Shown here: positions 61,834-62,001 of the stretch, in pieces | Layout of the letters: each line of letters begins with the position of its first letter | Numbering within the stretch: position 1 is the stretch's first letter | Origin: a virus | DNA length: 64,000 nucleotides | Virus record (IMG/VR): IMGVR_UViG_3300006931_000001 | Span: 32,001-96,000 of that record | Strand: one strand, 5' to 3' | The notes under the pieces: generated by a model | Told to the model about the DNA's origin: nothing | The model's database searches: none | Seen by the model: only the letters and a program-made list of their open reading frames with translations | Translations under genes and position numbers: made by a program

Positions 61834-62001
61834 ATGGAAAAGAAAAACAAGTCTGACAAGATTAGCATCCGTCGTGAGTCAATTCGTGAGCTGAATCCCG
61901 TCACGGAACTACCGACCGTGAATGGTGGCGGTATGTGTAGCACTGCCGCACCGACAGGTATGTGCTGCACGCAAAGCAAGACGTGCACTAAAACGCTCTG
62001 A
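61834..62001 (+). CDS. RiPP (lanthipeptide-like) precursor peptide, 55 aa, not in ORF track
   Basis: AAAGGAA RBS; MEKKNKSDKISIRRESIRELNPVTELPTVNGG|GMCSTAAPTGMCCTQSKTCTKTL*. Confidence 0.65.
   Translation: MEKKNKSDKISIRRESIRELNPVTELPTVNGGGMCSTAAPTGMCCTQSKTCTKTL

Follow-up and report, generated by a model that had tools for sequence, protein, structure and literature searches.

A 55-codon gene between two + strand genes of a phage

The DNA analysed here, referred to as the window, has a length of 64,000 nucleotides and corresponds to bases 32001-96000 of a 117,394-bp IMG/VR virus record. The record carries direct terminal repeats and has a completeness rating of 100%. The + strand holds nearly all genes of the window. 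The positions of the features discussed below are collected in Table 1.

Table 1. Coordinates of the peptide gene, its parts, and other features mentioned in the text
Feature	Sequence	Position	Strand	Remarks
Precursor-type peptide gene	window	61834..62001	+	55 codons (stop codon included in the coordinates); ATG start; from ORF list and homologues
Shine-Dalgarno-like AAAGGAA	window	61821..61827	+	direct reading; GGA ends 7 nt 5' of the ATG
Leader region, residues 1-32	window	61834..61929	+	basic N-terminus, I-x-I-x-R-x5-L, E(-8) L(-7) V(-4), NGG end
Core region, residues 33-55	window	61930..61998	+	GMCSTAAPTGMCCTQSKTCTKTL; follows NGG; 4 Cys and 8 Ser/Thr
71-aa ORF	window	61592..61807	+	upstream neighbour
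199-aa ORF	window	62063..62662	+	downstream neighbour
RecA gene	window	60224..61228		Pfam RecA, E 8.9e-96
SSB-like protein gene	window	59163..60224		phrog_1192, E 5.3e-20
Antisense ORF	window	61602..61988	-	128 aa
Head-module ORF	window	29..1129		ADPrib_exo_Tox, E 1.5e-14
285-aa ORF	window	2444..3301		
311-aa protein gene	window	39313..40248		collagen repeats, Pfam E 9.7e-8
PAPS-reductase-like gene and overlapping 359-aa gene	G000 (L009), outside the window	16490..18296		PAPS-reductase-like: Pfam E 1.1e-10
tRNA array	L005	1..3257		12 tRNAs in 3.2 kb
tRNA array	L008	1..1417		5 tRNAs in 1.4 kb
Further 55-aa peptide gene	L027	1362..1529	-	contig of 58,397 bp

The peptide gene codes for 55 aa (MEKKNKSDKISIRRESIRELNPVTELPTVNGGGMCSTAAPTGMCCTQSKTCTKTL, from the ORF list). 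A preliminary description of this DNA had placed a 55-aa ORF with its own AAAGGAA motif in the gap between two + strand genes, and the coordinates are exactly as given there. Its count of 4 Cys and 8 Ser/Thr within a 23-residue core agrees with our recount from the sequence, the Cys residues being C35, C44, C45, and C51.

The gene is part of a block consisting of a 157-aa ORF, the 71-aa ORF, the peptide gene, and the 199-aa ORF, which is flanked by the RecA gene upstream and a KTSC-domain gene downstream. The 71-aa ORF has its stop 26 nt upstream of the peptide gene and the 199-aa ORF begins 61 nt downstream of it. Neither the peptide nor these two neighbours could be assigned to a family in Pfam or PHROGs, and Rfam gave 0 matches for positions 61000-62800 of the window. 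No promoter-like site on the + strand was found upstream of the peptide gene, nor was it seen to be followed immediately by a terminator-like site; the promoter scan yielded 9 promoter-like sites compared to 8.3 expected. A private promoter or terminator was therefore rejected, and the gene is probably cotranscribed with its neighbours. A separate feature of the region is the SSB-like protein, in which nearly all of the last 100 or so residues, forming a C-terminal tail, are Asp, Glu, or Ser.

Conservation and distribution of the peptide gene

The ORF is a real, coding gene under strong purifying selection. A word-indexed search of 5.8 billion proteins retrieved three homologues of 52-57 aa (E 1.7e-12, 2.0e-12, and 1.0e-9). 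The 21 residues from G31 to C51 (GGGMCSTAAPTGMCCTQSKTC) are invariant in all four full-length sequences, which are that of the window and P0002, P0003, and P0004. At the DNA level, copies of the gene are found in two IMG/VR contigs (L002 and L003) and in five metagenome contigs (L004-L008), with one copy per genome according to a six-frame hmmsearch. A lack of conservation in related phages had been named beforehand as a finding that would speak against the precursor; homologues exist, and in the 21 codons of the core, L002 differs from the window by 8 synonymous and 0 non-synonymous changes.

Across all pairs, pS ranges from 0.32 to 0.97 while the core protein is identical or nearly so, and the synonymous sites of the core are near saturation. 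The few non-synonymous steps counted in the comparison with L005 stem from a serine switch between AGC and TCG, which leaves the residue unchanged. Real replacements within the core region are found in the L007 copy (M43L, K49D, and T52K). The contig L004 is from a close relative of the window's phage (88% nucleotide identity, RecA C-terminus 100% identical). In the comparison to this contig, two 60-nt segments covering 61836-61955 are identical at 112 of 120 nt and at 40 of 40 aligned residues; the neighbouring 157-aa and 71-aa ORFs are 76% and 69% identical.

The two parts of the peptide differ in their conservation. Leader identity between homologues is only 6/30 to 12/29 (20-41%), while 22-25 of 25 residues (88-100%) are identical in the stretch from GGG to the end. 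In RiPP families, the reverse of such a frozen core with a variable leader is usual. Where the surrounding genome or fragment has 43, 47, 62, and 69% GC, the GC3 of the peptide gene is 0.58, 0.56, 0.88, and 0.93, respectively. It thus follows each resident genome, which indicates long residence in each of them rather than recent transfer.

Three other interpretations of the locus were rejected. The ORF which runs antisense to the peptide gene varies in length (58 aa in L002), and every core difference falls on third positions of the + frame. An RNA element is contradicted by the blank Rfam result and by substitutions that are patterned as in coding sequence. The peptide is not a lipoprotein, since upon direct reading it lacks a hydrophobic stretch and GGM-C is no lipobox.

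The records G001 and G002, from which L002 and L003 are derived, overlap by 40,383 nt with 99.985% sequence identity and are thus one phage, referred to as the sibling. Along the whole genome, proteins of the sibling have matches in the window's phage with about 26-59% sequence identity (major capsid 55%, large terminase 48%, RecA 53%, ThyX 53%). The two phages are syntenic, with a GC content of 69% in the sibling versus 43% in the window's phage. Such a gap of 26 points is uncommon inside a single phage lineage and implies hosts that differ greatly. The contig L006 represents the same locus as that of the sibling and is from a contig of 116,986 bp, so that the sibling is about equal in length to the window's phage.

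In spite of the overall synteny, the position of the peptide gene is non-syntenic. The 157-aa, 71-aa, and 199-aa ORFs of the block described above have no match in the sibling, where the peptide gene is located about 2 kb from ThyX. In L005 and L008 (46-47% GC), it is antisense inside a dense tRNA array (Table 1). In L007 (62% GC), it is found at the contig end, near genes for dCMP deaminase, thymidylate synthase, and a ParB-like protein. With different neighbours at every locus, the peptide gene is without a conserved neighbour. LanB dehydratases use glutamyl-tRNA; in L005 and L008 the peptide gene directly adjoins a gene for tRNA-Glu(UUC), which may well be due to chance, Glu being one of 12 tRNAs.

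Searches beyond these contigs were largely unproductive. Two pattern scans across 185,579 species-representative bacterial and archaeal genomes gave 91 and 12 pattern matches, among which no relative of the core was confirmed. A degenerate core pattern applied to viral contigs returned only the two contigs already known. Megablast of window positions 60200-63500 against cultured phages gave no match, and tblastn of the peptide gave non-significant matches only (one among phages at E=1, three among plasmids at E values of at least 0.5). The gene was found in two sequencing runs, both being rhizosphere metagenome DNA from which the DNA analysed here may itself have been derived, with no RNA run listed. 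On present evidence, every recovered locus of this core is in a phage or in a fragment with phage-like gene content. A narrow scan with a leader DNA pattern uncovered one further viral contig from IMG/VR, L027, which codes for a 55-aa peptide with the leader KLRLNRETIRQL and a different, Cys-containing core.

Leader type and relation to known peptide classes

The leader is a double-glycine leader related to those of class I lanthipeptides (NCBIfam NF038153, lant_leader_L1a), and is best described as a relative rather than a certified member. [quoted passage not shown] The peptide has I10-x-I12-x-R14-x5-L20 followed by G31-G32, a conservative version of LxLxKx5L (I for L, R for K), and in this way agrees with the combination of leader motif and Gly-Gly end described there. 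It scores 13.8 bits against NF038153 (residues 1-22), below the cut-off of 22 bits, which is also the case for P0003 (18.3 bits) and P0004 (14.0 bits); P0002 gave no match. In a genome-level NF038153 scan at E<=1, the leader went undetected.

When 1.84 billion cluster representatives were searched with a profile, 55 matches at E<=1e-3 were obtained. When 52 of these relatives were compared with curated models at E<=0.01, 38/52 matched NF038153, 18/52 matched TIGR04149, and 9/52 matched NF038158, with 2/52 for the class IIb bacteriocin model and 1/52 for ComC. Six of the ten relatives which were checked singly pass the NF038153 cut-off (24.2-31.6 bits), including P0009, the core of which starts with LCSTTAPT. 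The claim of a class I-like leader, made in the preliminary description, is therefore partly upheld: the motif, the GG end, and the assignment of most relatives to NF038153 speak for it, while the peptide's own score falls short.

The closest profile matches (P0005-P0012 and P0015) have the core scaffold x-C-S-T-x-A-P-T-G-x-C...T-C in common. The remaining matches share only the leader, K-L-x-L-x-x-E-T-(I/L/V)-R-x-L...GG, and have varied Cys/Thr-rich cores. Kept in the relatives are the core positions C35, C44, and C51 as well as S36, T37, T41, and T46; C45 is not kept in the more distant ones.

For exporter proteases, the recognition pattern L(-12)x3E(-8)L(-7) with a hydrophobic residue at -4 and GG is described in the accessible part of PMC6363468. 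The leader follows this pattern at V(-4), L(-7), E(-8), and GG, but position -12 is Asn; its Leu is found at -13, which can be attributed to a one-residue insertion. In P0002, P0003, and P0004, position -12 is I or L, position -7 is L or M, and position -4 is V (P0003, P0004) or A (P0002), so that these three agree with the pattern either fully or with conservative replacements.

Among characterized systems, class I LanAs (NF038153; PMC7268733, accessible part) are similar in having a basic N-terminus, the (L/I)x(L/I)x(K/R)x5L motif, the GG end, and a short core rich in Cys, Ser, and Thr. Our case differs in that LanB, LanC, and a C39 protease are absent from the whole genome and that the carrier is a probably virulent phage. 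TIGR04149 (GG_sam_targ_CFB, a radical SAM-modified RiPP) has the same leader style and is matched by the relatives enumerated above, and P0004 comes close to its cut-off of 25 bits (24.5 bits). However, the peptide itself gave no match to this model at E<=10, and no radical SAM domain is present in the phage or in the sibling records. For class II bacteriocins and ComC-type pheromones, which are exported by peptidase-containing ABC transporters, the recognition pattern (PMC6363468, accessible part) is matched by the leader at -8, -7, and -4 but not at -12; the phage is without a transporter, and the Cys/Ser/Thr-rich core is closer to RiPP cores than to class II bacteriocins.

Modelling by AlphaFold2 with a 15-sequence alignment gave a low-confidence model without a fold (mean pLDDT 60.6), in line with a precursor that is unfolded. 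A profile search of the PDB gave 0 matches at E<=10. In the ESM Atlas, a lanthipeptide-leader cluster was retrieved at only 0.86, which we take as a lead and not as evidence.

Orphan status and possible maturation by the host

That no RiPP enzyme is encoded in the window had been noticed before; this was confirmed and extends to the complete genome of 117,394 bp. Six-frame HMM scans, by which the rest of the phage was searched for such enzymes as had been proposed, detected no Radical_SAM, LANC_like (PF05147), Lant_dehydr_N (PF04738), Lant_dehydr_C (PF14028), Peptidase_C39, or YcaO domain and no PqqD (RiPP recognition element). The two LanB scans (PF04738, PF14028) are without a positive control, as 0/14 control genomes matched, while all 14 were matched in the Radical_SAM scan. 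A real ABC transporter is also absent, since ABC_tran gave only sub-threshold P-loop matches in RecA and thymidylate kinase. In the sibling records, no match to PF04738, PF05147, or Radical_SAM was found.

A tyrosine integrase was not found in the phage genome. Its capsid and terminase share only 38-40% identity with their counterparts in SPO1-like (Bacillus-group) myoviruses. From this kinship and the lack of a tyrosine integrase, we conclude that the phage is probably virulent. A Shine-Dalgarno-like 4-mer precedes 60 of 133 ORFs (45%) compared to 7.7% of random windows (G000); for the 69%-GC sibling, the values are 18/71 ORFs (25%) and 15%. Given the mode of translation initiation in Bacteroidota, Shine-Dalgarno use at 45% argues against a host from this phylum. 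The Gram-negative or Bacteroidota setting implied by the preliminary description is thus doubtful.

We tentatively favour the interpretation that the gene codes for a substrate-only RiPP precursor of the double-glycine, class I lanthipeptide leader type, which is matured by host machinery. The gene would be a single-gene accessory of a lineage of virulent soil myoviruses of about 117 kb, with the phage contributing nothing but the peptide. During infection, the leader may bind to machinery of the host. Host enzymes, most likely a dehydratase and a cyclase of the LanB/LanC type, would join Ser/Thr and Cys as thioether rings, candidates being T41-C44 and either T46 or S48 with C51, and a C39-peptidase ABC exporter of the host would cut after GG. 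What we infer is that the peptide would be translated in the infected cell, be processed by enzymes of the host, and carry rings, and that it would benefit the phage, for example by interference with rival bacteria or rival phages. The frozen core beside a drifting leader fits a product with a conserved target and a leader matched to each host: the leader would drift to fit the respective machinery, and the core of about 21 residues would be frozen by acting on that target.

Several observations do not fit easily with maturation by the host. The leader is sub-threshold for NF038153 and has Asn at -12. No bacterial relative of the core was found in the 185,579 genomes, so that maturation would require host enzymes to act on a foreign core. 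C35 is without an upstream Ser/Thr so that no canonical ring can be formed there, and C45 is not conserved in the more distant relatives. The use of Shine-Dalgarno motifs is at odds with a host from Bacteroidota, in which leaders of this type were described first. Since the occurrence of lanthipeptide clusters varies from strain to strain, a virulent phage would run a risk by depending on them.

A more far-reaching version can be envisaged, which we regard as possible but rather unlikely: a parasitic RiPP, being a substrate-only gene of virulent soil phages that is plugged into the lanthipeptide and exporter machinery of each host. Its leader would re-evolve per host, while the invariant 21-residue core would hit a target that is conserved across hosts of 43-69% GC. 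Such a target might be a precursor of the cell envelope or part of a rival phage. If this holds true, a virus would for the first time be seen to hijack a RiPP pathway of its host for a modified peptide of its own.

Genome mining assumes that RiPP precursors are encoded together with their enzymes and retrieves them on this basis; a lone precursor in virulent phages breaks this assumption. A core that is frozen through synonymous saturation and a 26-point shift in GC while the leader diverges points to a virus which exploits, or interferes with, the natural-product machinery of its host. The invariant core also lends itself as a candidate bioactive peptide, the target of which would be conserved. 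In full-text literature, lone lanthipeptide-type precursor genes in phages were not found to be described, although similar cores could be contained in the supplementary precursor tables of PMC7268733. Bacteriocin and RiPP clusters on temperate phages (bioRxiv 10.1101/2020.10.01.322628, accessible part) are comparable in that a bacteriocin-type ribosomal peptide gene is phage-borne. Those clusters, as far as described in that part, are whole and on temperate phages, whereas here a lone precursor gene is carried by a phage without tyrosine integrase. In the case of the lanthiphages of Actinobacteria (bioRxiv 10.1101/2024.06.26.600839, accessible part), lanthipeptide chemistry is likewise tied to phage-host conflict, but these peptides are host-encoded, the enzymes LphB/LphC are present, and the core motif is TXDXCXXXCXXXC.

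The foremost alternative, which we consider unlikely, is a double-glycine leader peptide that remains unmodified and requires only a C39-peptidase ABC exporter of the host, or is released at lysis. The mature form of about 22 residues would then be folded by disulfides and would act as a class II bacteriocin-like toxin or as a signal from phage to phage or from phage to cell. The exporter pattern at E(-8), L(-7), V(-4), and GG, together with I/L(-12) in the three other full-length homologues, is in agreement with this, as are the conservation of C35, C44, and C51 and the lack of a modifying enzyme in the phage. Many peptides other than lanthipeptides have GG leaders, and a few of the relatives do match the class IIb or ComC models. 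Yet the conserved S36, T37, T41, and T46 beside Cys are the usual mark of thioethers or azoles and not of a disulfide peptide. In addition, the nearest curated models are lanthipeptide and radical SAM-RiPP leaders, and the phage lacks a C39 exporter.

We find it improbable that the peptide is a decoy, as had been suggested earlier, which occupies the leader-binding site in a lanthipeptide synthetase or exporter of the host, thereby blocking a host RiPP such as a defensive lanthipeptide. Anti-phage class I lanthipeptides do exist in Actinobacteria hosts (bioRxiv 10.1101/2024.06.26.600839, accessible part), and the phage has a leader-like sequence but no enzymes. However, the core motif reported in that source is unlike the core found here. 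A decoy needs a conserved leader and no particular core, and the suggestion fails to explain a frozen core beside a drifting leader.

Equally improbable is an intracellular, unprocessed micropeptide rich in Cys and Met, which would be metal-binding or regulatory and in which the leader-like N-terminus would be an ancestral remnant. The arrangement M-C...M-C-C...C could bind soft metals, and no processing machinery is encoded in the phage. On the other hand, GG and the spacing of E(-8)/L(-7)/V(-4) are kept in all homologues while other leader residues drift, and neither an AlphaFold2 fold nor a PDB relative was obtained.

Highly improbable is a self-sufficient phage system, with an unannotated phage protein as a maturase from a new family and no dependence on the host: many ORFs are without a Pfam match even at E<=0.5, most of which are common to the sibling at 30-59% identity, but no PqqD domain was found and the neighbours differ at every locus (RecA/KTSC, ThyX, tRNA array, dCMP deaminase/ThyA).

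Pfam scans of 51 phage proteins revealed only domains related to replication, nucleotides, lysis, and structure, with many proteins being blank. Domains were assigned to the portal protein, a lysin (GH25 and PG_binding_1), ThyX, thymidylate kinase, dCTP deaminase, a PAPS-reductase-like protein, helicases, primase, ligase, an SbcC-like protein, UDG, a PD-(D/E)XK nuclease, terminase, and an ADP-ribosyltransferase. The 285-aa ORF listed in Table 1 is among those without a match even at E<=0.5.

Some of these proteins deserve mention in their own right. The PAPS-reductase-like gene overlaps a 359-aa gene with a weak ParB_N match; both are 52-57% identical in the sibling and look like a DNA-modification pair. 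The ADP-ribosyltransferase domain is found in an ORF of the head module. A 311-aa protein which is encoded between the genes for a DnaB-like helicase and primase carries collagen triple-helix repeats.
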